64,000 bases of DNA from Marsupella aquatica (taxonomy: Eukaryota; Plantae; Marchantiophyta). The stretch lies in contig OZ316892.1 in the NCBI GenBank assembly GCA_973895155.1, positions 1-64,000 on the forward strand, read 5' to 3'. Each line of letters opens with the position of its first letter. The first letter of the stretch is position 1. Positions 14,341-64,000 of this stretch are shown one piece after another. The notes under the pieces are model-generated. The model was not told where the DNA came from and made no database searches. It worked only from the letters and a program-made list of their open reading frames with translations. The position numbers and the translations under genes are program-made.

Positions 14341-14451
14341 CTCCAAAATGCGCACACAACAAACTGGGGGTCAAACTCACCCCCAATATTCAATAATCAT
14401 ACCAGTACTTAAAAAACTGGTATGCCACATGTGAAAACTGGGGATGACACT

Positions 14452-14520
14452 CTAAACCCTCAACCCTCAACCCTCAACCCTAAAAACCCTCAACCCTCAA
14501 CCCTCAACCCTCCTCCCACC

Positions 14521-14551
<31 letters not shown>

Positions 14552-28461: not shown

Positions 28462-29838
28462 ATGCTCCATAAACGAAGGGAGAGGAGAAAAAATGAAAAT
28501 AAATTTCATGAATATGGCGCCGAATTTTCTATCATAACATTTTGTTCAATATGGGATTATCTAAGCAAATTATGTGAATCTAAACAACAATTTATTTTAT
28601 ATTGGATTTTAAAAAATGAAAATATTTTTGTATATTTTGTTACACACATTTTACAAATAAATGTGTCCAATTTTTCAAGAGCTAAATTTTTGAATGGGTA
28701 TAACAACTGCAGAAGTGCAATTTCACCAATTCTCCCTCTTCAAACACTTCAACAAACCGAGAAAATCTTTCATCATCATCAACAGAGACAAAAATTGCCT
28801 CCACTATTGAAAAAATTCATGGGAAAATTTCACATCCTTAACCTATCCCAACTCCGTACCTTACAAGTAGAGAGGGTAGCTTCTTGTAAAGTTGACAATA
28901 CATTCTCTTCAACACAAGTAGAAGTGCAACAAATATCAAAATCACAACTGAAAAAATTGACTGGAGTGATAATGGGAAATTGGAATGAAGACATGACTAA
29001 AACCAATCATAGTAATCTTACATTCACATTTGAGCGTTATCCATCAAATTTTCTAGTGATAGAGAAATCTGAAAATATTGTTTACTTTTACGATAAGTCA
29101 GGGAAAAAGCCTTGGCTTGTAGCAATGCTTATGCACCAACAAATATTGGGAGTGACAACATTACAATTCATTCGAAAACTTTTGAGTGCATTGTTTGTTG
29201 CTCATTCTCCATTTCAAAGAGGCGAGGGGAAAAAAGCTTTTGACAGCTTCATGACAGGATATGGTCCTTGGAATAGCAGTTACATGGGTGGCCGTTTGAC
29301 TTATTACACACACCAGAAGAAGATGAATACCATTTTCGATGATTGCCTTGATGTCAAAGATTTTGAGAAGTGGATCGATAAATATTCACATATTGAACTT
29401 ATGGATATTATATTGGGGCTTTATATGTGGTGGTGCCCAGAGATGATAGAGTGTTTTTTGGAATACTCTCATCCGTACTTACTATCATCTGATCGTGACA
29501 AATATCATGGAAGTGAAGAGCAGATAGGGGAGAATGTTAGACCTAGTACTTACCAATTATATATAAGTGAGGATTATTGTGTGCAAACACATGCTGATGA
29601 TGATGCAACTGACTTCACCTTAGCGTATGCTAGTCATCCTGACCATTTCCTTTCAGCAATCGATTTTGTAATTCCAGAGTATGGAATTCGATTGCCAATT
29701 AGAGATGGAAATCTATTTGCATTTCGGAGCGATGTTGTTCATGGTACAGGCTTTAGAATGAAAACATCGAATCCTGCATATGTTGGAGCTATTACCGTGA
29801 ATAAAAACCTCAGCAGACTGATGCAAAAATTACATTAA
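28462..29838 (+). CDS. TET/JBP-like Fe(II)-dependent dioxygenase, paralog 1 (458 aa)
   Basis: Intact ORF. C-terminal double-stranded beta-helix signature QLYISEDYCVQTHADDD (HxD, His 29590) ... FVIPEYGIRLPIRDGNLFAFRSDVVHGT (distal His 29740). The ATG follows TTTTGCAG; putative intron 28221-28461. The ORF is certain; the family assignment is motif-based. Confidence 0.72.
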   Translation: MLHKRRERRKNENKFHEYGAEFSIITFCSIWDYLSKLCESKQQFILYWILKNENIFVYFVTHILQINVSNFSRAKFLNGYNNCRSAISPILPLQTLQQTEKIFHHHQQRQKLPPLLKKFMGKFHILNLSQLRTLQVERVASCKVDNTFSSTQVEVQQISKSQLKKLTGVIMGNWNEDMTKTNHSNLTFTFERYPSNFLVIEKSENIVYFYDKSGKKPWLVAMLMHQQILGVTTLQFIRKLLSALFVAHSPFQRGEGKKAFDSFMTGYGPWNSSYMGGRLTYYTHQKKMNTIFDDCLDVKDFEKWIDKYSHIELMDIILGLYMWWCPEMIECFLEYSHPYLLSSDRDKYHGSEEQIGENVRPSTYQLYISEDYCVQTHADDDATDFTLAYASHPDHFLSAIDFVIPEYGIRLPIRDGNLFAFRSDVVHGTGFRMKTSNPAYVGAITVNKNLSRLMQKLH

Positions 29839-40806: not shown

Positions 40807-42249
40807 ATGGCAAAACGAAAGTTTTGGAAAGTGAACAAACAAATGAAGGAAGATGGCAAATATGAGTATGAGAAAATGAAATTTGCAATGGACGTTTTCA
40901 TTCAAATTTTTTCAGCGATCATGATATTGCATCCACGTTCACAAAAGTTTGCCATGTTATTTCTTCTTCAAGAAGATAATATTTTTCAAGCATTTGTACA
41001 AAATGTATTGAATATTAAACATACTGTATCGAAAGCAATGATATATAATGCTTACTATAGATTTAAAGAAATTGGACCACCAAAAACCTTTACTTCTTGC
41101 GCATGGGAGAATATCTGTGATATTCTTGATCATCATTATTCTTTAGATTCAGTACCCTATAGTATAAGAAAATACATCCATTTTCTTAGGTCATCTACCT
41201 ATATTGAAGAGTGTGTAAAAAGAGAAAAAAATATGCTAGAGAAAAAAGAAATGGTGTTTGAAAAAATTATTTCCCAATTTTGGTGGGGAAATGTGAATCC
41301 AATGGAATTAGTGCAAGGATTTTGGGGAAGAGTTGATGATGAAGGTGAATGTTTTTATCGCTTAGAATTAGAAAAAACATTACAAATACTTTCTAGAAGA
41401 AAAAACAAAGGGAAAGAAATTGAAATTGAAGAGGCACCTATATATAGGGAGCTTCCAATTTCTTACGTTGAAATCCAAAAAACAAAACAGGTTACGGAGA
41501 TCTATGATAAAATCTCAAGTGAGCTAGTGGGTATCCATATTCGCCCTAAAGATGTTCATAAATCTTTTACTATATTGATGCGAACTTATCTTAAAGATCT
41601 TTTTTGTGCTCATCCAAGTTCAAAAAGATCTAAAACTAGAGCATCCTATATGAGTGAAATGGTGGGGTTCGGTCCATTTCACCATACATGGACACCTGGA
41701 AAAAATGTTACATCTTTCTACACTCATAGTAATAAGTTAGTAAAAGCTTCAAAACCTTTAAAAGATTTTGGTAGATTTATTGATCGATTTGCACATGGGG
41801 CTGTGGTAGAAATTTTAATGTCTATGTGGTTTAGATATTATCCTACGTTATTACATACTTTTCTTAGATGTTGTAACCCTTACTTAGAAACTTCCCAATA
41901 TATTAAGGAAGGTGTTGAGATACCATTTTTTGATAAGCACATGAAGAAGGGACCTCCTGCTTATCAACTATTCATTACTAGAGATTATTGTTCACGTTTT
42001 CATGTAGACAATGATAGGACAGAGTGGACACTAGCATATACTAGTCACCCTGATGAACATATTTCACCAGTTGATTTTGTATTTGCCAAACATGGATTTA
42101 TATTACCTTTGCATAATGGTGATTTATTTGCATTCAAAGGCAAACATCTCCATGGTATGGCTTTTAGAAAACCAACAGAAAATCCTGCATATATTGCAGC
42201 TTTAGTTATGAATAGTGGCTTAGGACAATTATTAAATAGAATAGAGTAA
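40807..42249 (+). CDS. TET/JBP-like Fe(II)-dependent dioxygenase, paralog 2 (480 aa, most divergent)
   Basis: Intact ORF. SEMVGFGPF; YQLFITRDYCSRFHVDND (HxD, His 42001); DFVFAKHGFILPLHNGDLFAFKGKHLHGM (His 42151). The ATG follows TTTTCAG; putative intron 40428-40806. Confidence 0.72.
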   Translation: MAKRKFWKVNKQMKEDGKYEYEKMKFAMDVFIQIFSAIMILHPRSQKFAMLFLLQEDNIFQAFVQNVLNIKHTVSKAMIYNAYYRFKEIGPPKTFTSCAWENICDILDHHYSLDSVPYSIRKYIHFLRSSTYIEECVKREKNMLEKKEMVFEKIISQFWWGNVNPMELVQGFWGRVDDEGECFYRLELEKTLQILSRRKNKGKEIEIEEAPIYRELPISYVEIQKTKQVTEIYDKISSELVGIHIRPKDVHKSFTILMRTYLKDLFCAHPSSKRSKTRASYMSEMVGFGPFHHTWTPGKNVTSFYTHSNKLVKASKPLKDFGRFIDRFAHGAVVEILMSMWFRYYPTLLHTFLRCCNPYLETSQYIKEGVEIPFFDKHMKKGPPAYQLFITRDYCSRFHVDNDRTEWTLAYTSHPDEHISPVDFVFAKHGFILPLHNGDLFAFKGKHLHGMAFRKPTENPAYIAALVMNSGLGQLLNRIE

Positions 42250-44557: not shown

Positions 44558-45857
44558 CTTAAGGATGAAGTCGGTGATGATCTCCAGAATGAAGGATTGC
44601 CTGTCTTTACCAGCGGGTAGAATGGCCCCGAGATGCCCATGATCCCTGAAGATAGCCTGAGACAATACCCTGCACAGATTCCAACCGCTATTTGACCGCC
44701 AATGTAGAATGGCACCTGTGGTGTACAGCATTGCAATTGACCCCTGGGTTTAGTGCAATCCATCATCTGTTGTTGATTTGACTTGATCTCGATCCTCTAC
44801 GACCCCGTACCCAACTTCCACTAAAGAATATGCTTGATGGAAAGATTGCTTATCTAGGCAAGCATTCTGGCAAAAGCACTCACATCTTTCCAGGGAAAAT
44901 GCTGCACAGTTGCAAAGGCAACGGTGACCGAAGGATTCAAGTGTGCACCTGAAATGTGACCCACTGCATATATCATGTTCATGACAACAATCCCAAAAGA
45001 TAAAGACATGCCCACATGCGTCACGGCTCCATTGATCGAGCTTCGCATCCACTACCGCAGATCCACAATCAGTGAACACCAGGATGAAAGTAGCAATGAT
45101 TTCTGCTCCAACCTGCTTCAATACAAGGATTTCTCCTGGTTAGCTGGTGAGATTGGCCGTTGGCATTGTTCTCCTCAAGGGATGTGGTCTTCACTCACTT
45201 ATTGCATTGACCCCATTGAGGATGTCTACGTTCAGATTCATTTCGTTCGTATAAGCTTCAAAGGAATGTTATTTAGCTTCCCAACAGCAATACTGCGGAC
45301 AGTATCACAAGCTCCCAAGTATTAATCGGGATTAATTACAAGGACTTATGTGAGGACTGGGTAGAGGGGTCCATGACATTCATTTGAAACTTTTAAAAAA
45401 GCCTGTAGTAGTCCTCACCGAGAAGTTCGGAGCGAGTGCTTTCAATGCAGCATGCAAGCCAAAAAAGATTAATGTGCGAGGAAGAGGTTCCAAGATGTGG
45501 TAATTGCCAAAAAGATGAGAGATCTTGAGAAACTATGCTACTACAAAAACAAGCTAGCATAGTACAGAGATGAAATTTATCAGTGTGCAACCGGTAGTAG
45601 GAACTTACCTTTCGCATAAGACATGTATATGGCAATTTCAAGGATCCCAAATATCCACACCCTGGTTGTTCGTCTGCGAGAGGCATATCGACGGTCTGGT
45701 CAAGGGGAGAATTCTCAAATCGCTGGCTCAATGACGGATGTTTTGCTGCAGCAGGAGGAACGTCAGTTGGAACACGGGTATCGTTCCCCAACACATAATG
45801 GTCCTTGGCTTGCAGTTTTGCTCTTCCTGCCATCTGGTCGTTCGAATGATCTGCCAT
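44558..45857 (-). pseudogene. NIP (NOD26-like) aquaporin 5' half with introns; exons about 45857-45609, 45112-44884 and 44715-44558
   Basis: KVGAEIIATFILVF, GHISGAHLNPSVTVAFA (NPA-box variant), QVPFYIGGQI. GT-AG borders are present; frameshifts in exons 2 and 3; second NPA half missing. Confidence 0.88.
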
Positions 45858-47029
45858 TTTTCTGGCTGCAAACAGATTGTCGTCTGCTTACAAGTAGTTC
45901 TGGCACCTGCAGCACGTACGTACCGGCACCTAACGATGATCCTCTACCGTTACATACATTGACATCCTTAATTGGAAGGAGCCAGACAGTGCAGCAACCC
46001 CACTACTGTGAACTCGTTAACCCGTGAAGAAGTAATTCTGGCTCGTTCAACTTGGGATGTCAGAACAGGACTGCAATATAGGTCATGCACATGCGTGCAC
46101 AATTGTAAGAGAGCAACGATGAAGAAAGCTGAAGCTTCATTGATTGCGGAATCCCACAAATCGATCACCACACAAACCTATTCTCTAATGAGACAACCAG
46201 TCATTCTCAATCCTGATATCTCTCACACTAGCACACTTCGCCCCTTGTAACATTCGATTGTGCTGACAGGTCTAGCTAGGCAGCAAGTATCACAATCACC
46301 ACTTCCACATTTGTGACTTCTAGTCGGTCCCTCCCTCTGTCTGAGACCATAAAACTTAGCATGTAGACCCCAGTTGCCACCATGATTTCACAACCCTTCT
46401 ATATTCCCAACCTCTGTCAGCCCTTGCACTCTCTAGCTCCATTTGGGACCCTTTTTGAAAAGTGGGAACAAAGATTGAAGACTACTTCTGCCCCCCTTGG
46501 GGCCTCTCTCCTCGACCAGTGAGAAGAAGGACAAGACAAAGTTTAGGGTGGAGAATGAATACTGCACATCAAAGCACCGAGAGGGGGGGGGGAACGGAGC
46601 AGAGAAATAAACTCAGTGATTTAGTTTTCACAGGCCTGCCAAGGCAAGATGCATGAAACAAGCTCTCTAATACCATGATGAATTTTGAATACTTTACTCA
46701 ACTTGATCATCCCACGTAAAGTTAACAAGAAATAGCTTTGCCCCAAACTGACTCCTAAGTCACAAAATAGGAGTAGGAAATAATCTGGGTCTAACAAAGC
46801 ATATCCTATTTAAACTTCAAACAGCTAGAGAGAGCTGACCTGCATGCCAATGTGATCTACATTAAGAAACCGAAGCTAAAGTATGGATCTCTCCCCTGAA
46901 ACTTTCCCACCGAACACCATACTTCCATCTAAGTAGTCTGATATTCATTTCACCCTTCATCTCCTGAACTTCACTTTTGAAATCTTCCAAGTAATTTACC
47001 ACACTGTCCGGCCTCTATAAGAATTCTTC

Positions 47030-50000
47030 TCAATTCTCACACCGAAATTCAGGATACTTGATCCTCACAATGGTTGCTACAAGACGCATAAAATTGTTGC
47101 CCAGAGCCTCAGGACTTGTAGACACAACCCATTCACACAGCTCCTGGTCACTTTTCCCTTTGATTTCAGGAATTGCTCGGAATAAATCGCTCTGTATGTT
47201 ATCAAATCGCCATGCCTTCCACACAAAAAGCCGCAATCTCTCTCCTGATTCATCTTCACACTGATCTCCATACAGCCCTTCATGAAATCTCATCCCACTA
47301 GGCTGGTGTGGGAAGTGACACTTGAAACAAGTGTCTGGTCGAGAAGGAAACTTGTTATCGCAATTTGCACGGTTGTGTGTTCCTAGACACTTCACACATC
47401 GTCCCCGTACATAAGGACATTGCAAAATACCATGAGGAACACTCTTTGAGAGGGGACTCCAACACATCAAGCACTTTTTCCTATCCCCAGCAAATTTACG
47501 GATGATACAAATCTTATTCATGGCTTCGTCAATTCTTTGTTTGATGAGTGTTGGTCGAGCTCTTGCCACAACCGTGGTTGTGGTTCCTTTGCCTTGGGAT
47601 GATCCGAGTGATGATGCTGGTGTTGTTCTTTCACCTGGTGCTGTAACCCTAACACTCTGTCCTCCTTGTATGTTTTGGGAGATGCTCCCCTGAGATACAA
47701 TTTCAACCACTTCTGACCTAGCTTGTGATAATTCTTCGGCCTCATATTCCATTGGTAGTTCCTGATTGTCTGCTGCTTGGGAGCATATGTCACAAGGAAT
47801 TGCATCCGGGATGAGGTAACACATCTGTGGCTTACCATCAACGCTAGCATGTAGTGCAAAGCGACGACACATTTTTGTCTCCTCAATCCATTTGTTTGGA
47901 ATCTTGAAGTTGGAGTCCATCCTCAAGGCCTCATTGCGGTAGCTGGAGTTAGAAACAACAGTGCTTATTGCTAATAAACCATCACGCCCAGCTCGGCCAG
48001 ATTCCTGATGAAATTGCTCAAAGGACCTGAAATTACCTCTGTGAATTACAAGTCTGATTGACTTGTAATTATAGCCAGAACCAATGACCCCAGTTGCCAC
48101 CATGATTTCACAACCCTTCGACTCCCACTTCTTCAAGGTTTTCACGGTGTCTGCTGTGCTACATCCTGCATGCAAAAATGTACAGCACAAGTTCCTGGCT
48201 TCGAGTAGCTTTGCCATCTCTTGGACTTCATCTCTTGTTAGGCAATAGACAATGGCCCGGTCATGAACCAGGCTAGATCTCTTCCAATCTTGAAGCTGTC
48301 TAACTATTTCTCCATCCATGTCAGGCACTTCCACAACCATGTATCGGATGTTTGGCCTAACAGTAGAAGAACGAACCCAATGTAATCTTGAACCCAAAGT
48401 CAGTTCGATATCAGATTGTTGTGTGGGTGGTAATGTCGCTGTTAATCCTATAATTTGACAGGGAACTTTCATTAGAGAAATCAGATTTCTCATTTTTGGA
48501 CGGAAATGACACTGTAGTGTATGAATCTCATCAAAAACAATCGAATGCAATCTTTGTGTAGCTTGCAAGTGGTTTGCAAAGACACCAAATGTATCTGAAT
48601 CAGCTGCAGTCTCGATAGATACAAAAACAATTGCAGGTGTTACTCCTATCCCGAGTGCAAATCCACTTGTAAACACAGTGTGACCAATTCCTGCTTTTCT
48701 GCATTCAGATAAGTGACCCGATATGAGAGATTTGAATGGGACTACCACAATCACTGTTTTGTCCATCAATGTGGAAGGGGCCATGAAAATCAATGACTTT
48801 CCTGTTCCAGTGGGAAGTACAGTTACAAAATCCACAGTGTTTTCAATAGCCAAAGCAACAGAGATTGCTTGTTCAGTTGACCTCCACCTTTTGTGACCCA
48901 ACTTGTGTAGAGCTATGGAAGCTCTTATACTTGTGTCGTGACAGATGTGCAGTGCCGAATCAACATCTCCCACAACTGATGTTGATGGTTCTCCATAGGC
49001 AGGGCAATAAACAACCCTTGTCTTGCTTGGAACATGATCAATTTCAAGCTCAATGTCATGACGTGGACGTAGAACAGTAGTGGTTCTTGGAAAAGGATCT
49101 AGTGTGACTTCCCTGCAACCTGTTGTTGAGCAATCCAGATGAATCAATCTTGGGGACTTATCCGAAAGATTAAGCAATGCATGCCACTTATCTGTAAATA
49201 TTCGGAATGCTCTCAAGAGATGTCCATCAATAGCTCTTAAATCTTTTACACTTTGAGCATAATGATGTCCCATTGTAGCTGTTGTATGTCCACCTGCCAC
49301 ATCTACAATATCATCAAGATCTTGAGTGCGTTGGTCTCGAATCTTTTCTGAAAAAAATGCTGCTAGGTGTCGGTATTCTGAAAGCCCGAATGTGACTCCA
49401 CAACGCTTAAAGAAATTGTTGTGTATGCTCTTGGAAAGATCATGTGCATCTTGCTTTTTATCCATATCAACGAACCAACAATCATCATAATTACGGGCAA
49501 CCTCCTTTCCCCATATTTTCTGTGCAACATAAGATTGTGTAGGCCTCACCAAACAAAAGTATACCAGAAACAGAGTTCTTAAAGAACTTGGAAGAAACCG
49601 TATAAGTGGTTTCATTGGAGCACCTGTATTTGCACCTTTATGATAGGTTTGAAAGAGCGCTATTGTATGATGCTCTAACAATTTTGTTGTTGGATCATCA
49701 TCTGGGCCTGCTGTTGCCCAATAAAATGACCTCTCGCTTGTGGCTGTGTTGCGAATCAAGAAACTGTTGTACTCTTCGCCCCTTGCTGGTAGACCGGCAG
49801 TGAAATGTATAAGCAGATTCAATTTTTCTTGTAAATCAGAGCAAGCAGTCATCCACTTATAAAGTGTGATATCATTCCAAATGACATCATTTCGATCTGT
49901 CCGCCCGAGAATAAAGTGTCCTCTAATCTTAGGATCAACAAACAAGTGTGTTAGTAGATCGAGGCCATGTTGCTGAAGAATCCGGTTGCGAGGATCTATG

Positions 50001-52000
50001 ACAAAGTTGTACCCAACTTCTGTGTTGTTGACATCGTCGTAAATAGCACGACTCTCCTTAAGTAATTTGTCAACCCAATCTGTTCGGAGACCAAGAAGCA
50101 CATCACAATTTAAAATTGAGTGGGCTTCTTGAATAATAGCATGCACCATATCTCGAAAATTGTCGATTGTAATAGATTCACCATCAACTAGACATGCTGT
50201 ATTATTGGCATTCAATGGTACTAGTCTTGGCCATACTGGAGTCCCTACAGTAATCCTATTTGCCAAGCGCAGAGATTGCGATACAATAGTAAATGGAGTA
50301 GGTAGTGCTATGTCACTTAAATATTGAAGAAGTCGATCAGCTTCTTCATTAAGAATGGTGCTTGGGTTTTTATGCCAAAAACATTGTGCAAGGTGCATCA
50401 AAATGGTCGCCCTAGCCCAATATTTGAGTATCGCCATTGGTTGTGTAAGATGACGAACATGCCGAAATGAATACTCTTCTGCTTCTGGACTGTGGCCAAC
50501 TTTTATGAGTGAATGTAAAATAAGAAACCGAGTGAAAATACAGTTCGCTGCTCTTCCTGCTTCAAGTGTTGCAGGCATCTTTGGAGTCCAAAGATGAATC
50601 AACACATTATGTAGAACAGCTAAATCAACATTGTCAATAGAATTGTCATCTAATTCATTGAGTTGACTCATGAATTTTTGAAGAGCAATTTCCATTTCTT
50701 CTCTGTTTGTTTGAAAAACATGAATGTCCGAACTAAGCTCATTAGAAGATGATCGAAGCAAGCAGAGAATGAATTCTGTGATTATATCATAGTACCTACT
50801 CCTTGATGATTTTGAGTTCAATTGATTGAATCCCACTGCAACATCATCATTGATATTTGTCTTCTCCACTAGTCTTCTCAATCTGTAATCCACCTCTTTA
50901 AGAACCAAATCTTGTACATTGTTCATGTAGATAGTCACCACTTGACTGACATATGAGAGTGGAGATTTGCCCTGCTTTGGTGGTGGGAGCATCTGTGCTT
51001 TCACCTGCAAAAATGGTACCCCTTTTGGCATGAATTGGGCCGCAAGCTCATGCCATTTAGACTGTGCTAGCCATGGAGTTAGCTCAGCAATTGGAGGTAG
51101 AAGTTCTAACCGCAAAGACTGAAAATGGTCATCAAACTCCTTTGTGATTATAGCCCTCAAACTTTTAGATTGCAAGTGACAGTCATCCCCATCGAGATTG
51201 AGATTGTGATGTTGAACACCGAAGTATTTGAGGCCTATAACACGATCTGAGAGGATTTGAACTTGGCATTCACTCTTCACATTGACATAGGACAACTCAG
51301 GATGTTTTCTCAAACGATGATTGGACATTGACCTTTTCTCCCCACAATAGTAGATGCATTGTTTGCAAGAAAAGCCGTGTCGAATGACAACACCTGGTAC
51401 TGGAGAAAGCAATGCAGCTGGTGGATCTCTTGTATATGGTAATATGGATGTATCATCCATGCTTGTAAAAGAGAACTGTTGTAAGCTCCTCAATAGTTGA
51501 TGACTGTCGTAGTCTGATGCTATTCGATGACACCTTGATTTCTCCCGTTGATGCTTTTGAACATGATGAATGATATTGATATTTTCATTGTATATGAGTA
51601 CCGAATGACACTCTATACATACAAGGAAAACCAATTCCTCATGACGAACAACGCAGAGATTAACACTTCTCAAGATCTCTGGTGTACCAGAATGATCTGG
51701 TGTAATGCACAATCCTTCATTAACCGCCAAGTCGTGTGGATCAACAAATCTTTCGACTTGATTAACATGGATTGTGTCATAGTGTCGGCGAAGACTATCG
51801 CCGCGTGTGTAATACTGACAACACATATTATCGGGGCATGCGAACATCCCATTTTCAGACTTGTGGAGGATCTCCACAGTGCCATCGCAATGCTTGAATT
51901 TGAACGTCATCCTGTGCTCAAAACGTTTGTGAGCATCTCTTGCTCTTGCTGATTGAAAAATCTGCTCACACGCACTACATGGAAAAATGGTTGTCTCCAT
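47030..52000 (-). CDS. Zn-finger / tyrosine-recombinase-like / RecQ-type SF2 helicase fusion (1656 aa), telomere-linked-helicase-like
   Basis: Intact intronless ORF. N-terminal C2H2 fingers and a DUF3505/OrsD-like Cys/His region. Helicase motifs WRSTEQ, LPTGTGKS, VPFKSL, DEIH, LTATLPP, IVYCLTR, VATGVIG, QESGRAGRDG, then a CRR..C..CDIC Zn site and a Cys-rich C-terminus. First ATG at 52000 (the track start at 52024 is TTG). Confidence 0.88.
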   Translation of the reverse strand: METTIFPCSACEQIFQSARARDAHKRFEHRMTFKFKHCDGTVEILHKSENGMFACPDNMCCQYYTRGDSLRRHYDTIHVNQVERFVDPHDLAVNEGLCITPDHSGTPEILRSVNLCVVRHEELVFLVCIECHSVLIYNENINIIHHVQKHQREKSRCHRIASDYDSHQLLRSLQQFSFTSMDDTSILPYTRDPPAALLSPVPGVVIRHGFSCKQCIYYCGEKRSMSNHRLRKHPELSYVNVKSECQVQILSDRVIGLKYFGVQHHNLNLDGDDCHLQSKSLRAIITKEFDDHFQSLRLELLPPIAELTPWLAQSKWHELAAQFMPKGVPFLQVKAQMLPPPKQGKSPLSYVSQVVTIYMNNVQDLVLKEVDYRLRRLVEKTNINDDVAVGFNQLNSKSSRSRYYDIITEFILCLLRSSSNELSSDIHVFQTNREEMEIALQKFMSQLNELDDNSIDNVDLAVLHNVLIHLWTPKMPATLEAGRAANCIFTRFLILHSLIKVGHSPEAEEYSFRHVRHLTQPMAILKYWARATILMHLAQCFWHKNPSTILNEEADRLLQYLSDIALPTPFTIVSQSLRLANRITVGTPVWPRLVPLNANNTACLVDGESITIDNFRDMVHAIIQEAHSILNCDVLLGLRTDWVDKLLKESRAIYDDVNNTEVGYNFVIDPRNRILQQHGLDLLTHLFVDPKIRGHFILGRTDRNDVIWNDITLYKWMTACSDLQEKLNLLIHFTAGLPARGEEYNSFLIRNTATSERSFYWATAGPDDDPTTKLLEHHTIALFQTYHKGANTGAPMKPLIRFLPSSLRTLFLVYFCLVRPTQSYVAQKIWGKEVARNYDDCWFVDMDKKQDAHDLSKSIHNNFFKRCGVTFGLSEYRHLAAFFSEKIRDQRTQDLDDIVDVAGGHTTATMGHHYAQSVKDLRAIDGHLLRAFRIFTDKWHALLNLSDKSPRLIHLDCSTTGCREVTLDPFPRTTTVLRPRHDIELEIDHVPSKTRVVYCPAYGEPSTSVVGDVDSALHICHDTSIRASIALHKLGHKRWRSTEQAISVALAIENTVDFVTVLPTGTGKSLIFMAPSTLMDKTVIVVVPFKSLISGHLSECRKAGIGHTVFTSGFALGIGVTPAIVFVSIETAADSDTFGVFANHLQATQRLHSIVFDEIHTLQCHFRPKMRNLISLMKVPCQIIGLTATLPPTQQSDIELTLGSRLHWVRSSTVRPNIRYMVVEVPDMDGEIVRQLQDWKRSSLVHDRAIVYCLTRDEVQEMAKLLEARNLCCTFLHAGCSTADTVKTLKKWESKGCEIMVATGVIGSGYNYKSIRLVIHRGNFRSFEQFHQESGRAGRDGLLAISTVVSNSSYRNEALRMDSNFKIPNKWIEETKMCRRFALHASVDGKPQMCYLIPDAIPCDICSQAADNQELPMEYEAEELSQARSEVVEIVSQGSISQNIQGGQSVRVTAPGERTTPASSLGSSQGKGTTTTVVARARPTLIKQRIDEAMNKICIIRKFAGDRKKCLMCWSPLSKSVPHGILQCPYVRGRCVKCLGTHNRANCDNKFPSRPDTCFKCHFPHQPSGMRFHEGLYGDQCEDESGERLRLFVWKAWRFDNIQSDLFRAIPEIKGKSDQELCEWVVSTSPEALGNNFMRLVATIVRIKYPEFRCEN

Positions 52001-52009
52001 CGATCCTAG

Positions 52010-52300
52010 GGGTTGTGGGTTCAAGGGGAAGTTGTGTCTTGGGTTGGGTAGGTTGAGAGTTGTGTGTTGGGGGTTGAGTGAGTTGGGGATTTAATTTGTT
52101 GTAGAGTTGGGTGTTGGGGGTTCAGGAATTGGAAGTTGTGTCTTGGGTTGGGTAGGTAGACAGTTGTATGTTGGGGGTTGAGGGAGTTGGGGAGTTATGT
52201 GTTGGAGGTTGAAGGAGTTTGGAGTTTGGTTGTGGGTGGGGGTTGACATTGTGGGTTGGGGGAGTTGTGGGTTGGGAGTTGCCGGGGAAGTTGTTTGTTG
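52010..52300. repeat. G/T-rich telomere-like degenerate array immediately upstream of the helicase start
   Basis: Runs of GGGTTG, GAGTTGGG and GTTGTGTGTTGGGGGTTGAG; the reverse complement resembles 14452-15162. Confidence 0.8.
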
Positions 52301-52689
52301 GGATAGAGACAACCATGTTGTAAAAGATGGACAAGAAAGATGATAAAGAAAATCCAACACAAAAGGGAAAATCAACACTAAACCTTTGAACCTTTGATCC
52401 CTGAGTATAGACAGCCACAACAAGGGCAGACTGACACATTGGGCAGTCAGTTGTAAAAGATGGACAAGGAAGATGATAAAGAAAAGCCAACACTTAGTCT
52501 AGAAAGAGGGGAAATTCAGAGAAAATCTGGACTGTCAATAAGAAGAGATAGATGGGCAAGATCATGTGCAAGGACTTCAATTCAATCCAATCTTCAATGG
52601 AAAATCCCAGTTCTTACAATATACGGTTAACATAATTATGTATACAAATCATCATTCCTGCTTATATGTCACAAGTATCTCCTCGACAA

Positions 52690-52890
52690 GACAAGTCAAC
52701 AATAAATATCAACCTGCTTATCCGCCACAAGTATCTCCTCGATAGGACAAGCCAACAATAAATATCAACCGTGAAAAGTCAAAAATAAATGTTAGCCGTG
52801 GAAAGTACCTCCTTGACACGACAAGTCAACAATAAATATCAGCCATCGAAACAATAAATATTAGCATGGAAAGTCAACAATGAATGTTGG
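52690..52890. repeat. Degenerate short repeats (GACAAGTCAACAATAAATATCAACC)
   Basis: Five to six degenerate copies. Confidence 0.7.
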
Positions 52891-53890
52891 CCGTGGATTT
52901 TAAATGAACGGGCCAGATGCTTGTATACACACGACCACACCATCTTCTTCACGACCGCCACTACACTTGTTACAGGCCTCCAAAACAGCCACACAGCCGC
53001 TGCACTACGGCCGTAATGCGCCGATAATATATATAGGACTTCTGATTGCTGGTCTCATAGCTCGCAAGGTGCACTGTCAAATTCCCATAACGCCACGTTC
53101 GACTGGCTCAGCTCCGCTGTCAAGAACGATGGGCTTAGCCTTCTTAAGGTCGATCCACTTACGGTGACAATTCTCCGAGGAGAGCTCCTGGTCAAACTCT
53201 TGAGTGTCGTCCACCTTGAAGGAACCGGAGCTAACTCCTTTCCAGCTTCCTTTCTTCAACTGCGCATGGCCAGCCTGCTCTACTTTCAGCTTTCCAGATG
53301 CTACTGCGCGTCAGGGAGAGCACTATGGGTTGTGGGTTGGGCAAAGCCTTCCCTCAAATCCACAATAGTTTTGAATCCCTTTCCACCAGCCGGCTTAGCC
53401 CTGCCTCACTGATGTCCCCACCTCGCCAGAAAGCCACATTTTCATCCTTGTAAAGGGATCGTGCACTTTTGGAAGACCGAAGCCTAACGGGTGCAAGATT
53501 GGGGATATCAGCGGAACTAGGGATTCCCCGGAAAACCAGCATCCAGGCAAGGCATTCTTCAGTTTCAGCATCCTTTCCTGAGCTTCCAATCCTTGCTGAG
53601 AATCAAAGGGCAAGAGGGATTCCAGAGCCCACTCTAGTGTTTGATGCTATGGAATGACATCTAATTTTAGGGTCCCTAAACCCTAGTGACATCTATTTGT
53701 AGGAAAGAAGTCTTCATTGTTTACAAACTTGATTCATGCTTGTTTCATAGCAGTCCTTGTATTAATTAAAACATCAATGTGCTCTTAGTTAAGAAAACTA
53801 CTATTGGGGAATAAATGACCTTGCCATGAGTACTCTATTTGGATGGCAGTTTTTACTGCAAAAGTGAGGAGGTCTGGCTGGGATGGGACA

Positions 53891-54628: not shown

Positions 54629-55309
54629 ATGGCACGTAACAAGCAGAAGGCCAAGAAGCCTAAGACGGAGGTGAGCAACACACAGGTGTCTTGCACAGAT
54701 TGTGAGAATTTCTCCAAGAGTCAAGTGTACCAGAAGGCAGCTCATTGTTGTGCCATTTGTGATGATGGTGGGGGCTTGGTTATCTGTGATGGCCCATGCA
54801 CAAGACATTTCCACCTAAACCCTGAGTCTAACCTTGCTGTAGAGAACAATTGTCCAGGGGTGGGGCTCCCCTCTGCACACAAGGGAGCCTGGATGTGCAC
54901 TGATTGTGTAGAGAAGCAAGCTAAGTGTGCACAGTGTGGAAAGTTGGGGTCTTATGAGACCTTTGCTGATGCCGGACTAGTTGTTAGGAAATGCCCTGAC
55001 AGATTTTGCATAAGATTTTATTGTTTGTCATGTTTGCCTACTCATGCCACAGTCTGCCCACTTCATACATGCAAGGCATGTGGTGAGCATGATGATGAGT
55101 ATTGGACAGACATAGTCCATTGTGTTAGATGTCCCACAATGTGACATTTTCATTGTTTGAAGGACCTTCAAGCAGAAGGCTATGCTTGTGACAGAGAAAT
55201 CTATGATCACTCTGCACATGGCGTTGATCGATGGATCTTTTACTGTCATCGCCATCCGATTGATCCTACTTTGCATACTCCTGTCAGAGATCACATATCT
55301 TGGCTTTGA
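54629..55309 (+). pseudogene. Stand-alone EDM2/NSD-type composite PHD-finger gene (226 codons) with one premature TGA at 55142-55144
   Basis: CAICDDGGGLVICDGPCTRHFH...WMCTDC..KQAKCAQCGKLGS...C.RFYC..C...CPLHTCKAC...CVRCPT. The frame continues past the TGA as HFHCL...RWIFYCHRHPIDPTLHTPVRDHISWL*, matching the EDM2 PHD tail motif (IYC..H.ID..L.TPVRDH). Confidence 0.82.
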
Positions 55310-55960
55310 AGCTGAACGAAGTGGGTTGGTACAGTGCCCCTAATGTGGATGTATTGTTTGGAGATTACAGAGAGTTCATTTTTGATGAGAAGGGCCATTG
55401 AAATATTAGGCAACAGTTATCTTGTGCTTACATGTGGCTAGGTACATGCCACTAAAAACTTACCTTAAGCCTTCCATGATCTCTTCAGACTGAGCAATCA
55501 TTTTGAAAATTAATAAAATTATAAACTTATTGTTATGTGTCTATGAAGTATAAGGCTTTCGGATGACAAATTCTTAGTTTGTATAAATTCTTGATTCTGA
55601 TTCAATGGGTAGTCCTTCATTTATAACATACTTTATATGTATTATCACAAAACAATACTCAAGACACTATCTCCTTTTTGTATTCTGTGCAGTATCATTC
55701 ATATCAACATTTGTACAATATTGAAGCCAGACCCAAGAAAAGAAGTGACAACTGCTTTCGACAAATCAGTACTTTGGGAAGGTGAGTACCTAAACATCAA
55801 ATTTATTTCTTTCTGTCCTCCTAAATCTTAAATGGTTCATAAATCCAATGACAAAAGTTACAACTTACGGCATTTTGGTACTCAGATCTTAAATGGTTCG
55901 TGTACTATTTGACCGGAATTGTAATTTTTACTAAATAAATTATTTGTTCTTACATGGCAG

Positions 55961-57325
55961 ATGGGAAAAAGAAAGCATAATACTTTAAGAAAAAAAGAAT
56001 TGGGGGAAGATTTTTCTGTGGATGTATTTGCTACAGTGTGGGAAGACCTCAAAAAATTAGATACCGTAAAATTGAAGTTTGCACTTCATTGGATTCTATG
56101 TCATGACAACATTCTTGAACTTTTTGTTAAAAAAGTTCTTAAACTAGAGTCTTCAAGATTTTCAAGAACACTATTCTTGAATGGGTATCAAAATTGTAGA
56201 AGCCATATCATTCAGATCTTTCCTCCTGAGGTGTTCATTGAAATTGATGATATCTTTTTTCATCATGGTTTCAGACTAAAATTACCTCAACCTTTGAAAA
56301 ATTCAATTACTATGTTTTCTAATCTTGACATTAGAAAGCTTAAACTTTTTCAAAAAGAAAGAGATAATCTTTGTAGAAATGGAGGAACTTATGCTAAAGT
56401 TGAAGTAGACGTTCAACGTATTTCCTCTTCAAAACTAAAAACACTTACTGGTGTAATTTTAGGTGATTGGGATCAAACTACAACAACATTTACCTCTGAT
56501 CCAAACTTTATTTTCTTAAAATTTCCATCAGACCTCATTATCGTAGAAGAAAAGAAAGGATTTACCTATCTTTTTGATAGGTCTGGAGTCAAACCATATT
56601 TGATAGCAATGATATTCCATCAAGATATCCTATCACCTGATTCAATGGTCTTCATTCGAAGATTATTAGAACAATTACATGCTGCCCATCATGTTATCCA
56701 AAGAGGGAAAGGAAAAAGATCATGGGAAAGTAAGATGACAGGGTTTGGTCCTTTTCATAATCCTTACAAAAAAGATCAAAGTTGTGTATCTTTTTATACT
56801 CATGAACAAAAGATAAAGACATTCTTCAATCAAGATTGTCCCGATGCAGCCAATTTTGAAGACATGGTAGATAAATATTCTCATCGAGAGTTAATCGACA
56901 TTATTCTTGGACTCTACATGTGGTTATGTCCACAAATGTTAGACAGCTTTTTAGATTATTCTCATCCTTACTTATGTTCAAATGATTATAAGATGAACAT
57001 ATTTGAGAAAGCACTAAAATGTAAAGGTCCTAGTGCTTATCAATTATATATTAGTAAAGATTATTGTGTAGAAACTCATGCTGATCATGATACAGCAGAA
57101 TTTACTTTATGTTATGTTAGTCATCCTGATGCCAAGATTTCTCCTGAAAACTTTGTTATTCCAGAGTATGGAATATTATTACCTATTAGAGATGGTAATT
57201 TATTTTCATTTTGTAGTGACATTATCCATGGCACAAGATATAGAATTCCAACATCAAATTCTATATATGTAGGAGCTGTTACCATAAACAAAAAATTAGA
57301 TAGACTTTTACAAAGAAAACATTAA
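55961..57325 (+). CDS. TET/JBP-like Fe(II)-dependent dioxygenase, paralog 3 (454 aa)
   Basis: Intact ORF. SKMTGFGPF; YQLYISKDYCVETHADHD (His 57077); FVIPEYGILLPIRDGNLFSFCSDIIHGT (His 57227). The ATG follows GGCAG; putative exon 55693-55781 and intron 55782-55960. Confidence 0.72.
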   Translation: MGKRKHNTLRKKELGEDFSVDVFATVWEDLKKLDTVKLKFALHWILCHDNILELFVKKVLKLESSRFSRTLFLNGYQNCRSHIIQIFPPEVFIEIDDIFFHHGFRLKLPQPLKNSITMFSNLDIRKLKLFQKERDNLCRNGGTYAKVEVDVQRISSSKLKTLTGVILGDWDQTTTTFTSDPNFIFLKFPSDLIIVEEKKGFTYLFDRSGVKPYLIAMIFHQDILSPDSMVFIRRLLEQLHAAHHVIQRGKGKRSWESKMTGFGPFHNPYKKDQSCVSFYTHEQKIKTFFNQDCPDAANFEDMVDKYSHRELIDIILGLYMWLCPQMLDSFLDYSHPYLCSNDYKMNIFEKALKCKGPSAYQLYISKDYCVETHADHDTAEFTLCYVSHPDAKISPENFVIPEYGILLPIRDGNLFSFCSDIIHGTRYRIPTSNSIYVGAVTINKKLDRLLQRKH

Positions 57326-59561: not shown

Positions 59562-59930
59562 TCAAAAATCTTCTGGCTTGGGAATCCAAGTGGTACTCAA
59601 GACCATTGATGGAATATGGTTGTCATTGGGGTTCACAACATAAAAATCAAGGTCATAAAATTCTTCTCCAATTTGTAATGGCACTTGTTTTACTCTTCCC
59701 CAAAGTGAAATTAATCGTCCATCGATTGAGATTTGAGCACATATGGGCTGAACGTGTTGGCAAACTAATTGATGAAACAGTCTGTGGGACAGTAAATTTA
59801 TTCCGGAGCCTGGATCAATAACAAAGTGCTGAATAGTGTGTCCTTCCAATTTAATCTCCCCTTCAAGAGAATACTGAAATGCGCGGGAGAGAAAATCACA
59901 ACAATCCATAGTAGCTTTTACGGTCCACAT
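59562..59930 (-). CDS. Retropepsin-like aspartic protease domain ORF
   Basis: FVIDPGSGINLLS (D-x-G-S active-site-like) followed by G...VPLQIG...LDFYVV and MVLS..W, typical of gag-asp proteases. Confidence 0.6.
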   Translation of the reverse strand: MWTVKATMDCCDFLSRAFQYSLEGEIKLEGHTIQHFVIDPGSGINLLSHRLFHQLVCQHVQPICAQISIDGRLISLWGRVKQVPLQIGEEFYDLDFYVVNPNDNHIPSMVLSTTWIPKPEDF

Positions 59931-60039
59931 GATGACTCAAACAGAATAAGTGCTCCTCAGTGCTTCAATTAGGTCCATTCATACTCCAGGGAATAAACGC
60001 CCCTTCAAATCTTATATACATGAAGACGTTGCAAATCTG

Positions 60040-61245
60040 CTATCTACTCAACAACCCTTGAGTGACAACGTCCGGCCACGAAGGAGGAGTAGGTAACCTT
60101 ACTAGTCTCCTAAGTGATTTATACCCTTGAGCAGAAGAGTTCATAGCCTTATTCCGTATCAACTGTTCTCGTAGCTTAACAAGCTCTTTCTCGTACTTAT
60201 GTGGAACAACATACCCTTCATGGCAGACCCAAACAGAGTATTGGTATGGCCAAGGAAACTCTGGAGTTATTGGCGGAAAAGGAGCTTCAGCACGTCGGAG
60301 GACATATACCCAACACCAAATTTCATATTCCGAAAATTTATATCTTCTACCCTTATCAATGGGAGGAATAGCCTTACCCGGCTTATAAGTGGGAATCAAC
60401 ATTCGAATACTCGGTAGATACGTACCAGGTAAAATCTGTTGTTGTTGATGTATACTCTCCATTTCCAGATGTCCGAAAGCTATCCGAAAATCATTCTTCT
60501 CCCACTTATGAATTGAAGCAAGGTTAGGTATAGGAATTAGGGATGGTAGTACCACTGTGTACCGAAGTTTGGGAGGTACTCTGATAATACGAGGATCTTC
60601 GTCTTCCTCTCCATCGCTTGGAGCTCCTTTCCAACGAAAAATAATGTATGGGTTTGAAGAAGGTATCACCGACTCCTTAGTAGGCCAACGTGATAGTACA
60701 ACAGGAGATGAAGATGCAGGAGGTGGAGAAGAATTCCCCATTGTCGTGTTGATGGGCTTCAGCTGCTCAAAATCTGGTGAATTTGCTTCATGAAAGATCT
60801 GTTGATTTCTTACACGACGCAACCTTTTCCCAGGTCTTCGAGTATATGTCACTTGAAATTGCTCCGTAATAAGTGAACTCTCATCTCCAAGTGATATCCG
60901 AGTACCCTTATCTTTGCTTGAATCCAGTAAGATAGAAGCTGATGCAGAGCTAAATGCCAAATCAGGTGTTCCAGACAAAGGTATGGGTGGAGATACACTC
61001 TTGGTCTCAGGTAGCCCTAAATTGCTTGAAGGTCCAAGAGATGGAGTGGTTTGTAGACTGTGTTGAGACTCAAGTAATCTCTCTTCTGGAAGGTAAGCTG
61101 GAGAAACCCAATCAATAGATGGGTGTGGAGGAGGCCCTTTTCTCGCCAATGCTTCTGCTAACTCCTCAGACATAATCAGCGCAACTGTTATTCTAGTTTC
61201 AGGGGGCGGTTTCAGGGGTCGGCCACATAGGAAATGGCATGACAA
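60040..61245 (-). CDS. Retrotransposon-associated extra ORF, unknown function (up to 401 aa, Ser/Pro-rich N-terminal half)
   Basis: Long open frame downstream of integrase on the same strand; no recognised domain. Confidence 0.5.
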   Translation of the reverse strand: MSCHFLCGRPLKPPPETRITVALIMSEELAEALARKGPPPHPSIDWVSPAYLPEERLLESQHSLQTTPSLGPSSNLGLPETKSVSPPIPLSGTPDLAFSSASASILLDSSKDKGTRISLGDESSLITEQFQVTYTRRPGKRLRRVRNQQIFHEANSPDFEQLKPINTTMGNSSPPPASSSPVVLSRWPTKESVIPSSNPYIIFRWKGAPSDGEEDEDPRIIRVPPKLRYTVVLPSLIPIPNLASIHKWEKNDFRIAFGHLEMESIHQQQQILPGTYLPSIRMLIPTYKPGKAIPPIDKGRRYKFSEYEIWCWVYVLRRAEAPFPPITPEFPWPYQYSVWVCHEGYVVPHKYEKELVKLREQLIRNKAMNSSAQGYKSLRRLVRLPTPPSWPDVVTQGLLSR

Positions 61246-62536
61246 AATTAGGTGAAGTTGGTTGTCCAGCTACTCCTTCTACATCTACTATTTTGTCCTC
61301 TGAATCAGCCTTAAACAACTTTACAAGCTCCTGGCATGATACCGCCGGAGGTTCCATTGATTGTTGTACAAGAGGAACCACATCTAGGTTTGGGGAGGGA
61401 CTACGAGAATCTTCCAAATTATACTCCTGTAAAGCTTTTAAAGCATTATTACTCACTTCCATGGGTGGTGAAGCAGGGTTCTGTGAAGTTTTATCATACC
61501 CATCCGCTGCAGTAGTATATTGTTGAGGAGGTTCTCCTGGTAAGCTTTCTTCATCCACATCCATCCTGTCTTCATCATTCGCTCTGAAAGCAAAATTGTC
61601 CTGATCAAGATCTTGATCCTCTGATGGGTGGGAAAGAATTGGCTCGTCTCTCCCGCCAACTGGTTCTCTTGTCTCTTTCAGTCTCCGAACTTCATTTACC
61701 AGCTCAGATTCTTCGCAAGTGAGTAGTTTGCATAACGCCACCAGTGTTGAACTGGATCGGACTTCTCGTACTTCCGGCAACTCATTTGCTTCACAGGTAG
61801 ATGCGCTCCAATGGGTACGATAGAAGACTTTCTCTGAAAGGAGCAGACATTTATGCTTGTGATAAATGTGAGCTAGATAGGGAGTCAAGTTGGTAAATCT
61901 TAACTTTCCAGCTTGCAACCTGCTACAAAAGTTCTTTACCTGGGTATGAATTACCCTATATAAGATCTTCGTCCAATTGATGGTCTGCTTCTGTTCTAAT
62001 GAAGAGATAACGGTGGCAGCAAAAGAAAGAGTAATACATGTCTGACTCTCTGGATAGAAAATTGGTGACAAAAATCGAAAAACATGCTGCAAAGAGGTAA
62101 CTAAACAGTCCGTGGTTACCCAACCATTTCGCCTCTTAAAGGATTCAGGAGCAAAGAAAGACTCTATATAAGCTCGGGGCTCTCCATCAATCTTCTGCAA
62201 ATCCTCGCCCGTTGTCGGCGTCGAGTAGACTCCCGCTATGAGCGCTTCAGTCCAAACACTTGGACGCGAGCGGACACCGATTCCTTCCTCAGCATCCCAC
62301 ACACCTTGGTCGATGAGGCTGAACTCGCACATCCTCCAAGGGAAACGAAGTAATTTCTTCAAGCCCATCAATGCAAGATTCGTCCTCAATTGTCGGCGGT
62401 CCACCATATTCGACGGGATAATTGCGAGTATTGGTCGCGTCGTAAGTTTGGACTCCACCATCGCATCAATCGTAAAGGACGCTTCTCTTGCCGTTCCTAG
62501 AAGTGGACGCTTCTCGCAGCGTCCCGTCAAGACCAA
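61199..62536 (-). CDS. Retrotransposon-associated extra ORF (up to 445 aa)
   Basis: Long open frame directly 3' of integrase. Globular N-terminal half (FLSPIFYPE...INWTKILY...LTPYLAHIY) and acidic C-terminal half; similar in position to Athila/Tat-type additional ORFs. Confidence 0.55.
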   Translation of the reverse strand: MVLTGRCEKRPLLGTAREASFTIDAMVESKLTTRPILAIIPSNMVDRRQLRTNLALMGLKKLLRFPWRMCEFSLIDQGVWDAEEGIGVRSRPSVWTEALIAGVYSTPTTGEDLQKIDGEPRAYIESFFAPESFKRRNGWVTTDCLVTSLQHVFRFLSPIFYPESQTCITLSFAATVISSLEQKQTINWTKILYRVIHTQVKNFCSRLQAGKLRFTNLTPYLAHIYHKHKCLLLSEKVFYRTHWSASTCEANELPEVREVRSSSTLVALCKLLTCEESELVNEVRRLKETREPVGGRDEPILSHPSEDQDLDQDNFAFRANDEDRMDVDEESLPGEPPQQYTTAADGYDKTSQNPASPPMEVSNNALKALQEYNLEDSRSPSPNLDVVPLVQQSMEPPAVSCQELVKLFKADSEDKIVDVEGVAGQPTSPNFVMPFPMWPTPETAP

Positions 62537-62566
62537 GTTTTAGGGTGGACGCTTCTCTCAGCGTCC
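62477..62566. repeat. Second cluster of GGACGCTTCTC-N-AGCGTCC hairpin motifs
   Basis: Three copies at about 62477, 62505 and 62547. Confidence 0.8.
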
Positions 62567-62701
62567 AGTGCAAAAACTAAAATTCCGAACACTTGTGAAG
62601 GGGGAGGGAATGCTGATTCTAATAAAGTACAAACTACCTACCGCCCTCCACTGAAACTATGACCTGTCCCAGGTGAAACACTAAATAGGAGACTCATGAT
62701 A

Positions 62702-64000
62702 TCACTTAACCCAGAATCCATTGATTCGGGTGTCAAGTGGGTGACCGTCTAAGGTAGTCAAGGAAACCGAACTGTTAGCCCAGATTTGGGTAACTCGATA
62801 AGGACCAATCCAATGGGTATGGAGTTTCCCAGGAAATAACATATAACGGGAATCAAAGACTAATGCTAAATCACCAACATCTAAATTCACGACTCACAGC
62901 TTTTGATCATAAACAAGCTTACGCTTGTTCTGAATTGTAGCTGTATGGTCTAACGCTAAAAGTCTAACTTCTTCTAATTTGACAATATCAGAAAACCTAT
63001 GTGGGAGACTAGCCGCTGGAGAGAGACGGTTGGATACCAAGAGTCATTCTGTTGGGAAGGAGAATTCAATAGGAATGATACTGTCCAGGCCATAAGTCAG
63101 GTAGAAGGGAGTGTGAAGGGTTGTAATTTTCTCGGCAGTACGGTAAGCCCATAATGCAGAATGTAACTTCACATCCCAGTCTGTCTTGTGAGACTCTACT
63201 ATCTTATTCAGGATCTTGCCCACAATGCCATTAGCTCTTTCCGTTAAGCCATTAGCTCTGGGGTTGTAAGGAGTAGTTTTGCGATGCTTGATAAGATATG
63301 TGTTAGTAATTAACTCAATAGTTGAGTTAAGAAAATGCAAACCCCTATCGCTTACCAACTCCAAAGGACACCCGAACCGAGTAATAATGTGCTCAAAGAG
63401 AAATGCAGCCGCTGTTGTAGCATCATTCTTGCGAGTGGCTTTAGCCTCCACCCATTTGGTGGCATAATCAGTGGCCAGAATAATGTATTTACTTTGGCTT
63501 TTTCGAGCTGCTGGTGAAATTGGGCCAATAAAATCAATACCCCATTTCTCAAATGGTGTCAAAGGCAGGATGGGCGTAAGAGGCCATTTGGAACTAGCAG
63601 TGGGTTTCCCTATTCTTTGACAGGGGTCACACGTCTTAATAAAGTTGTAAGTATCTCTATGCATGGTAGGCCACCAGTACCCAGCATCCAAAATTTTCTT
63701 TACAGTAGTATTGATAGCATAATGGCCACGTGTTTCTCCATAATGTAAAGCTTCAATTACTTGTGGGAGTTCCCTGTTCTCCAGACATCGTCGCATCTTC
63801 TGATCAGGACCTTGTTTAAACAAAGTGCCCTGAAGGATAGTATAAGGTCCCACCTTATGTGCAAAAACAGCTCATTCTTCCGCATTAAGGCCTTCAGGAA
63901 AACTACCATGAATCAACATGTGCACAATATCGAAATACGGTGAAGACTATCCTTCAATGTGCCACAAATGCTCATCTGGGAATTCATCAGAAAGATTATG
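62702..64000 (-). mobile_element. Ty3/gypsy LTR retrotransposon pol (integrase), with in-frame stops; continues beyond the window
   Basis: HHCC zinc motif (LHYGETRGHY...CDPCQR), DDE core (WGIDFIGP / VSDRGLHF / NGLTERAN) and GPY/F motif (GKLHTHWIGPY) in one frame interrupted by stops. Confidence 0.95.

Follow-up and report, generated by a model that had tools for sequence, protein, structure and literature searches.

Does a long helicase gene of a liverwort also encode a recombinase, and could such a protein move its own DNA? The question is raised by the first 64,000 nucleotides (forward strand) of contig OZ316892.1 of Marsupella aquatica (assembly GCA_973895155.1), the whole of which is called the window here. 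An intron-free open reading frame (ORF) on the minus strand of the window encodes a protein which, judged by its sequence, is of the telomere-linked helicase (TLH) type. Enzymes of the lambda-integrase fold carry the catalytic series R...K...HxxR...(H/W)...Y, and telomere resolvases share this fold. The initial annotation had proposed such a catalytic set in the middle of the helicase protein, made up of an Arg, the Lys of YHKG, SEYRHLAAFF and GH...Y, and all these motifs lie in one stop-free frame at the positions where they had been placed. Modelling predicts that the middle domain adopts an Xer/Cre-like tyrosine-recombinase fold with Y922 as the putative nucleophile; taking prediction and conservation together, we consider it highly probable that the domain is a catalytically competent enzyme of this fold.

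The layout of the protein is as follows; residue numbers refer to the 1664-codon frame throughout (the first ATG, at 51998-52000, leaves 1656 codons), and lengths are given in amino acids (aa).

47030..52024, minus strand: TLH-type gene for a predicted recombinase-helicase, 1664 codons from TTG, intron-free, without internal stop
51767..51979, minus strand: two N-terminal C2H2-type motifs (aa 16-37 and 63-86), matching published TLH patterns by regular expression (10.1101/2024.02.27.582403)
51302..51643, minus strand: OrsD (DUF3505) zinc-finger domain, aa 128-241 (Pfam PF12013, E 3e-7, 31.3 bits, cut-off 26.6)
50372..51127, minus strand: aa 300-551, alignable with the close relative P0112
49154..49885, minus strand: predicted tyrosine-recombinase catalytic domain, aa 714-957, from fold models and residue conservation
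47978..48871, minus strand: RecQ-like superfamily-2 helicase core, aa 1052-1349 (Pfam DEAD E 1e-16, Helicase_C E 2e-15)
47300..47476, minus strand: C-terminal CxxC/His motif cluster, aa 1517-1575, with comparable motifs in P0112, P0118 and P0119

From its sequence, the region aa 300-551 is possibly the DNA core-binding part of the recombinase, and the C-terminal cluster likely binds zinc. The helicase core comprises the Pfam matches DEAD (aa 1052-1202) and Helicase_C (aa 1254-1349); its Walker A, DEIH and motif VI lie at 1070, 1165 and 1340, respectively. The best PDB relatives of the family profile were RecQ5, BLM and RecQ1; this search was swamped by helicases, the alignment containing full-length rows. 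Near-identical contigs (0-5 differences) run without gaps across 47277-52008 in sequencing run X1 and across 47268-51802 in X2, one of which may be where the window comes from, and four public sequencing runs contain 90-95% of the words of the ORF. Runs X1-X4 carry a 7-base insertion beside the stop codon, which by our reading alters only the last three residues. Among the listed runs sharing ORF words there was no RNA dataset.

Predicted fold of the middle domain

The middle domain was modelled with AlphaFold2 over two extents, aa 552-964 (413 aa; predicted local distance difference test (pLDDT) 81.5, predicted template modelling score (pTM) 0.82, 67 alignment rows) and aa 714-957 (244 aa; pLDDT 78.8, pTM 0.75, 86 alignment rows), and both models were compared against 48,161 solved chains. 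For the 413-aa model the top 31 rows were all of the tyrosine-recombinase/topoisomerase-IB fold, and the first unrelated row had a Z score of 4.8. The best match was XerA (4a8e; Z 11.7, root mean square deviation (rmsd) 2.9, 171 residues aligned), followed by XerH (Z 10.6), XerD (9.3-9.6), a bacterial topoisomerase IB (9.2) and Cre (9.1), with topoisomerase IB chains spanning Z 8.1-9.2. Lower scores were obtained for Ndc10, MrpR and SroF (5.3-6.8) and for the protelomerases (4.8-5.2; TelA 5.2, TelK 5.0). The 244-aa model gave the same ranking, with the top 29 rows belonging to that fold and XerA at Z 11.4 (rmsd 2.9, 153 aligned); protelomerases were not among the matches listed for it. Both models thus predict the fold that the initial annotation had suggested, and of the enzymes it had named for comparison, Cre and XerD matched well, whereas TelK reached only 5.0.

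The alignments mostly end 4-5 residues short of Y922, where pLDDT is below 50. Ungapped extension of the last aligned pair places Y922 opposite Y344 of XerH and Y324 of Cre in both models, and opposite Y379 of Tn1549 (number taken from the PDB title) in the 413-aa model, the 244-aa model being one position off. H335 and Y344 of XerH are spaced by 9 residues (PMC5241119), as are H913 and Y922 in the window protein; the numbering of Cre residues, Y324 included, follows PMC4381057.

Pfam assigned no family to the middle of the protein, a scan of the domain gave no PF00589 match, DUF3435 was absent from Pfam scans of the whole protein and of the domain, and a phage tblastn search returned no recombinase match. 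In the ESM Atlas, unnamed and mostly fungal clusters appeared at 0.97 and a PF00589 cluster at 0.86, which is a lead only. Among the viral models of BFVD the top match was an uncharacterized 620-aa protein of a Feldmannia species virus (E 0.0036, probability 1.00), with FirrV-1-B4 also listed; from this structural match a link to algal-virus recombinases is possible.

Conservation of the catalytic residues and relatives of the protein

The residues under consideration are encoded at the following positions.

49781-49783, minus strand: R748, Arg-I
49637-49639, minus strand: K796, catalytic Lys
49379-49381, minus strand: S882, occupying the His-II position
49370-49372, minus strand: R885, Arg-II
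49367-49369, minus strand: H886, the His first put forward as catalytic
49286-49288, minus strand: H913, His/Trp-III
49259-49261, minus strand: Y922, candidate nucleophile

A search with aa 700-1420 gave 110 proteins, and the exclusion of 14 (five canonical RecQ proteins of RQC/HRDC-type families, eight bacterial-type fusions and P0110, which was grouped with the fusions) left 96 homologs, many of them BLAST-matched over the helicase only. Most are only ~20% identical to the ORF protein. R748 is retained in 94 of them, K796 in 96, R885 in 92, H913 in 93 and Y922 in 96, and 88 of the 96 keep all five; apart from Y922 only K796 and one other Arg are equally invariant. Across aa 552-964, the window residue is matched in at least 94% of the 96 rows at 22 of the 413 columns, the median column reaching 3%, and all five residues belong to these 22. 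The spacing from His to Tyr is 9 in 95 of 96 homologs. A family profile search returned 1516 representatives (E <=0.001). Among the best 150 of these (149 new), 122 span all five positions and 117 of the 122 read R-K-R-H-Y; this second set is partly circular, having been found with the domain and aligned to the profile of the first set.

The catalytic set of the initial annotation was upheld for these five residues and had to be amended at the remaining His. H886 was rejected as the catalytic His, being retained in only 21 of the 96 homologs with Q in 61. The His-II position, three residues before R885, holds Ser882, and the homologs have S (42 of 96), A (36), R (11) or H (3) there. Since Cre H289A stays recombination-competent (PMC4381057), the missing His-II lowers the case for membership among tyrosine recombinases and does not exclude it.

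The closest named relative is P0002 from the liverwort Calypogeia fissa (62-66% identical). All other homologs found through the helicase, including all named ascomycete proteins, share 13-24% identity with it in the catalytic domain. The named relatives are mostly fungal, and one from the Mucoromycota is on record. P0112 is a closer relative of full length (33% over 1607 columns). P0114 has the recombinase domain and zinc fingers but lacks a helicase, and may be a truncated call. A quick tree built from 47 helicase rows has the window protein together with P0002 on a long branch within a 33-row TLH-like clade (SH-like approximate likelihood ratio test, SH-aLRT, 100), apart from canonical RecQ; the program flags long branches, and one member of the clade is named 'telomere-associated recQ-like helicase'. 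The resemblance to fungal telomere-linked helicases, pointed out in the initial annotation, is borne out by this grouping. In a quick tree of 55 rows for the recombinase region, the window protein belongs to a 15-row clade (97) that also comprises the two C. fissa proteins and unnamed sequences, and six named ascomycete proteins lie outside it. C. fissa carries two deeply different proteins of the family. A horizontal origin had been considered as well. A recent transfer from fungi, ascomycetes included, is unsupported, as catalytic-domain identity to the helicase-derived homologs, P0002 aside, does not exceed 24% and the protein falls in a separate clade with two liverwort proteins and unnamed sequences.

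The middle domain is common to named fungal proteins, including P0033, its Tyr lying 91-167 residues before Walker A, and by its position it equates with the published 'TLH domain'. As in the fungal proteins Magnaporthe TLH1, Schizosaccharomyces pombe Tlh1/2 and Fusarium oxysporum TLH, N-terminal C2H2 motifs are combined with a domain of ~250 residues before a RecQ helicase and with repeats just upstream of the start, and the helicase falls in the same clade. The window protein differs from them in its land-plant host, the lack of a telomere array in the window and the ~13-24% identity in the recombinase domain. In the available text of the TLH papers (10.1101/2024.02.27.582403, PMC1635262), the hosts given are fungi and a choanoflagellate, and the TLH domain is assigned no function. 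The words 'recombinase' and 'integrase' have 0 occurrences in the accessible text of 10.1101/2024.02.27.582403 and 10.1101/721753. We found no paper terming the TLH domain a recombinase, although preprint supplements, subscription journals or Repbase could still contain one.

With XerA, XerD, XerH and Cre the domain shares the predicted fold (Z 9-11.7), the order R-K-R-H-Y and the His-to-Tyr spacing of 9. It departs from them in the replacement of His-II by Ser, Ala or Arg and in the distance from R to K, which is 48 residues compared with 26 in XerH. Unlike simple tyrosine recombinases it is embedded in a protein of ~1660 aa with zinc fingers and a helicase. Protelomerases (TelA, TelK) and topoisomerase IB share the fold family and the tyrosine chemistry; unlike Xer, the protelomerases score lower Z values, and we know of no protelomerase or topoisomerase IB fused to a RecQ helicase.

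The family of 1516 representatives is hidden in annotations, because its members would be annotated automatically as RecQ. A two-sequence alignment of the domain used as query found no homolog among 4057 candidates, and neither viral contigs (22 candidates) nor metagenome contigs (337 candidates) yielded a confirmed related locus.

Possible mobility of the gene and rival explanations

We consider it somewhat probable that the gene is the motor of a low-copy, self-propagating tyrosine-recombinase DNA element. Several traits are element-like: a 5-kb intron-free frame amid debris of long terminal repeat (LTR) elements and repeats, the 1516 family representatives, the two divergent C. fissa proteins, diverged partial matches in other runs, and forms without helicase such as P0114. 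In such an element, the zinc fingers and aa 300-551 would bind the element ends or telomere-like repeats. R748, K796, R885 and H913 would activate the phosphodiester and Y922 would attack it, the cleavage yielding a 3'-phosphotyrosine and a free 5'-OH. Strand exchange could then excise a circle or link the element to another site. The helicase of the same chain might unwind from the nick or migrate the junction, and by its action the element would be copied or moved without long homology. In fungi, the same mechanism might explain the spread of TLH regions between chromosome ends; the plant copy sits in a repeat-rich region. As in Cryptons and the Starship/Enterprise elements, a eukaryotic element would move by a divergent tyrosine recombinase with zinc fingers (PMC8092012). 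It would be unlike Cryptons and Starships in that there is no DUF3435 captain, the recombinase lies mid-protein and is fused to RecQ, and no target duplication or defined ends were found.

More tentatively, the TLH genes of fungi, diatoms and early land plants may be the motors of an undescribed class of eukaryotic mobile elements, with tyrosine recombinase and RecQ helicase in one protein, which would excise or nick, copy and reinsert themselves and, in fungi, build the subtelomere. If so, the intact plant copy places that class outside fungi and away from telomeres, and if the domain is a recombinase, TLH genes would have to be viewed as self-spreading elements by which chromosome ends are shaped, and no longer as helpers of telomere maintenance. 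The presence of an intact land-plant copy widens the TLH range beyond that of the cited papers and provides a usable protein.

The flanks of the gene contain the following features.

52009..52302, plus strand: G/T-rich degenerate repeat block, starting ~9 bases upstream of the ATG
52657..52897, plus strand: second upstream tandem block with periods of 56, 27 and 22 bases
46366..46399, plus strand: exact 34-base duplicate of ORF positions 48086-48119 in the region of helicase motif V, lying 630 bases beyond the stop

The block at 52009-52302 is ~74% like an inverted C/A-rich block at 14745-14939, is present elsewhere in the genome too, and shows raised summed depth and loose contig ends. In Magnaporthe 181 bases separate the end of the helicase-associated repeat array from the TLH start (PMC1635262); the upstream block is analogous to that array in position only. 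The 34-base copy is possibly a templated insertion; a decayed second gene copy was sought around it, and no further remnant appeared. Three lox-like palindromes (0-1 in ten mononucleotide shuffles) were set aside, as the control is weak and two of them lie inside the ORF. Rfam gave no match in 40-60 kb. The 64-kb window contains no telomere array, and the plant heptamer is confined to single occurrences and short runs; the nearest telomere-like array is a degenerate (AACCCTC)14 at 14455-14551. The telomere-adjacent position typical of TLH genes was not seen in the window, with no telomere array within 47 kb 3' or 12 kb 5' of the gene; Magnaporthe TLH genes end within ~5.5 kb of the telomere (PMC1635262).

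A number of results weigh against a mobile element driven by a recombinase. For the domain itself, the Tyr loop was modelled at pLDDT below 50 in both models, the tyrosine-recombinase His-II of H-x-x-R is absent (Ser882), and Foldseek E values were weak, with Cre ranked first at 0.074 and 0.021 (the best in the PDB being 0.021). The viral models matched in BFVD were mostly integrases with a best E of only 0.0036, and sequence searches of Pfam, PHROGs and the PDB (phmmer) gave no recombinase match. At the locus, the two flanks share no exact match longer than 12 bases, a length attained or exceeded in 66 of 100 shuffles. Terminal inverted or direct repeats did not rise above shuffles and no target duplication was found, repeats of 4-8 bases being undetectable without a second copy or an empty site. 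In six runs there was no contig joining across the gene so as to skip it, and no empty site. The proposal that the protein excises, integrates or resolves its own element therefore finds no ends, target duplication or empty site at this locus. The summed contig depth of X1, which is not a copy number, is flat (~180-220) over most of 40-52 kb, which suggests low copy without sign of a recent burst. Run X6 contains pieces of flank and ORF that are ~92-95% identical, those of the flank being heavily gapped, and a further piece, at 83%, covers the catalytic region; the flank and ORF pieces suggest an old, stationary insertion. Runs X6 and X5 are of low depth and leave parts of the ORF uncovered, and these gaps were not taken as absence. 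X5 and X2 have contigs matching only short conserved parts, including diverged partial matches over the catalytic motifs, which may be diverged copies or other organisms.

In a neutral simulation the frame remained open in 0 of 300 copies at 3.5% substitution and in 58 of 300 at 1%, a comparison valid only if the X6 pieces are orthologous. Under that condition, the open frame at the divergence of X6 points to selection, which fits an active element and domestication alike. The protein could be a resident or domesticated enzyme of genome maintenance, in which the recombinase fold, acting with the helicase, would serve as a swivel in the manner of topoisomerase IB or as a junction resolvase; such a gene would be immobile, and its product a one-chain analogue of RecQ plus topoisomerase. 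Besides a frame kept intact while the X6 pieces differ by ~5-8%, the topoisomerase IB scores near those of Xer/Cre, the flat X1 depth, and the expression of yeast TLH under telomerase loss (cited in 10.1101/2024.02.27.582403) speak for such a role. We nevertheless regard it as rather unlikely: Xer-type recombinases rank above topoisomerases in both models, the gene has no introns, and of the 11 TLH copies in Magnaporthe just 4 are intact, with normal propagation of chromosome ends that lack TLH (PMC1635262), a pattern typical of selfish elements. An enzyme like a telomere resolvase, cutting and rejoining telomere-like repeats in order to cap, heal or exchange chromosome ends, appears improbable. 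TelA and TelK are among the fold matches, the fungal relatives are telomere-linked (PMC1635262) and the degenerate G/T-rich block adjoins the start codon, but the protelomerase scores lie far under those of Xer/Cre, none is listed for the 244-aa model, and the window is without a telomere array.

The domain might instead be a DNA-binding one of recombinase ancestry that has lost catalysis, comparable to Ndc10 or MrpR, and might serve only to target the helicase; the fold is shared with these proteins and with SroF, His-II is replaced and the Tyr loop is poorly modelled. However, R, K, R, H and Y are near-invariant at ~20% identity, and dead domains are expected to lose these residues first, which makes this reading quite improbable. 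Coincidental motifs, or contaminating fungal sequence joined into a plant contig during assembly, would account for the lack of a recombinase match at the sequence level and for the predominance of fungi among the named relatives. This is largely refuted and extremely improbable, since fold and conservation concur, the closest named relative is a liverwort protein, an X1 contig (46370-47117) runs from the flank into the ORF end, and gene and flanks have even depth.

Other features of the window

Outside the gene and its flanks, the following features were recorded.

28447-29838, 40807-42249 and 55961-57325, plus strand: three intact AT-rich intron-free ORFs of 454-480 aa with an HxD...H motif
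54629-55341: ORF fragment like a plant homeodomain (PHD) finger, NSD-type, below the Pfam cut-off
13376-15152: repeat region with a tandem array of 121-base units (7.9 copies, 96% matches), followed by (AACCCTC)14 and a C/A-rich block
21225-23777, minus strand: leucine-rich repeat (LRR) receptor-like kinase in three frame-shifted pieces (Pfam)
44750-45121, minus strand: aquaporin (MIP)-like fragment (weak Pfam match, E 0.044)
59562-63871, minus strand: LTR-retrotransposon remains with a Gypsy-type integrase core and zinc-binding domain, and a weak aspartyl protease match
903-3974 and 25327-27751: twofold repeat in several blocks of ~91-96% identity, from self-comparison

The three ORFs of 454-480 aa are 29-49% identical to one another, with a partial copy near 8292-8770, and have no Pfam match. 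Among their ESM Atlas look-alikes are clusters in which Tet_JBP is found in 16% and 2OG-FeII_Oxy_6 in 15% of members, and the three are likely TET/JBP-like dioxygenases. Two of them lie on either side of the recombinase-helicase gene, 4-5 kb away. In fungi, TET/JBP genes are carried on transposons. The PHD-like stretch at 54675-55341 has a summed contig depth ~100x that of its surroundings in four runs; the fragment is a high-copy repeat just upstream of a TET-like ORF. The window also contains a fragment that, by its motif, we take to be like a pentatricopeptide repeat (PPR).

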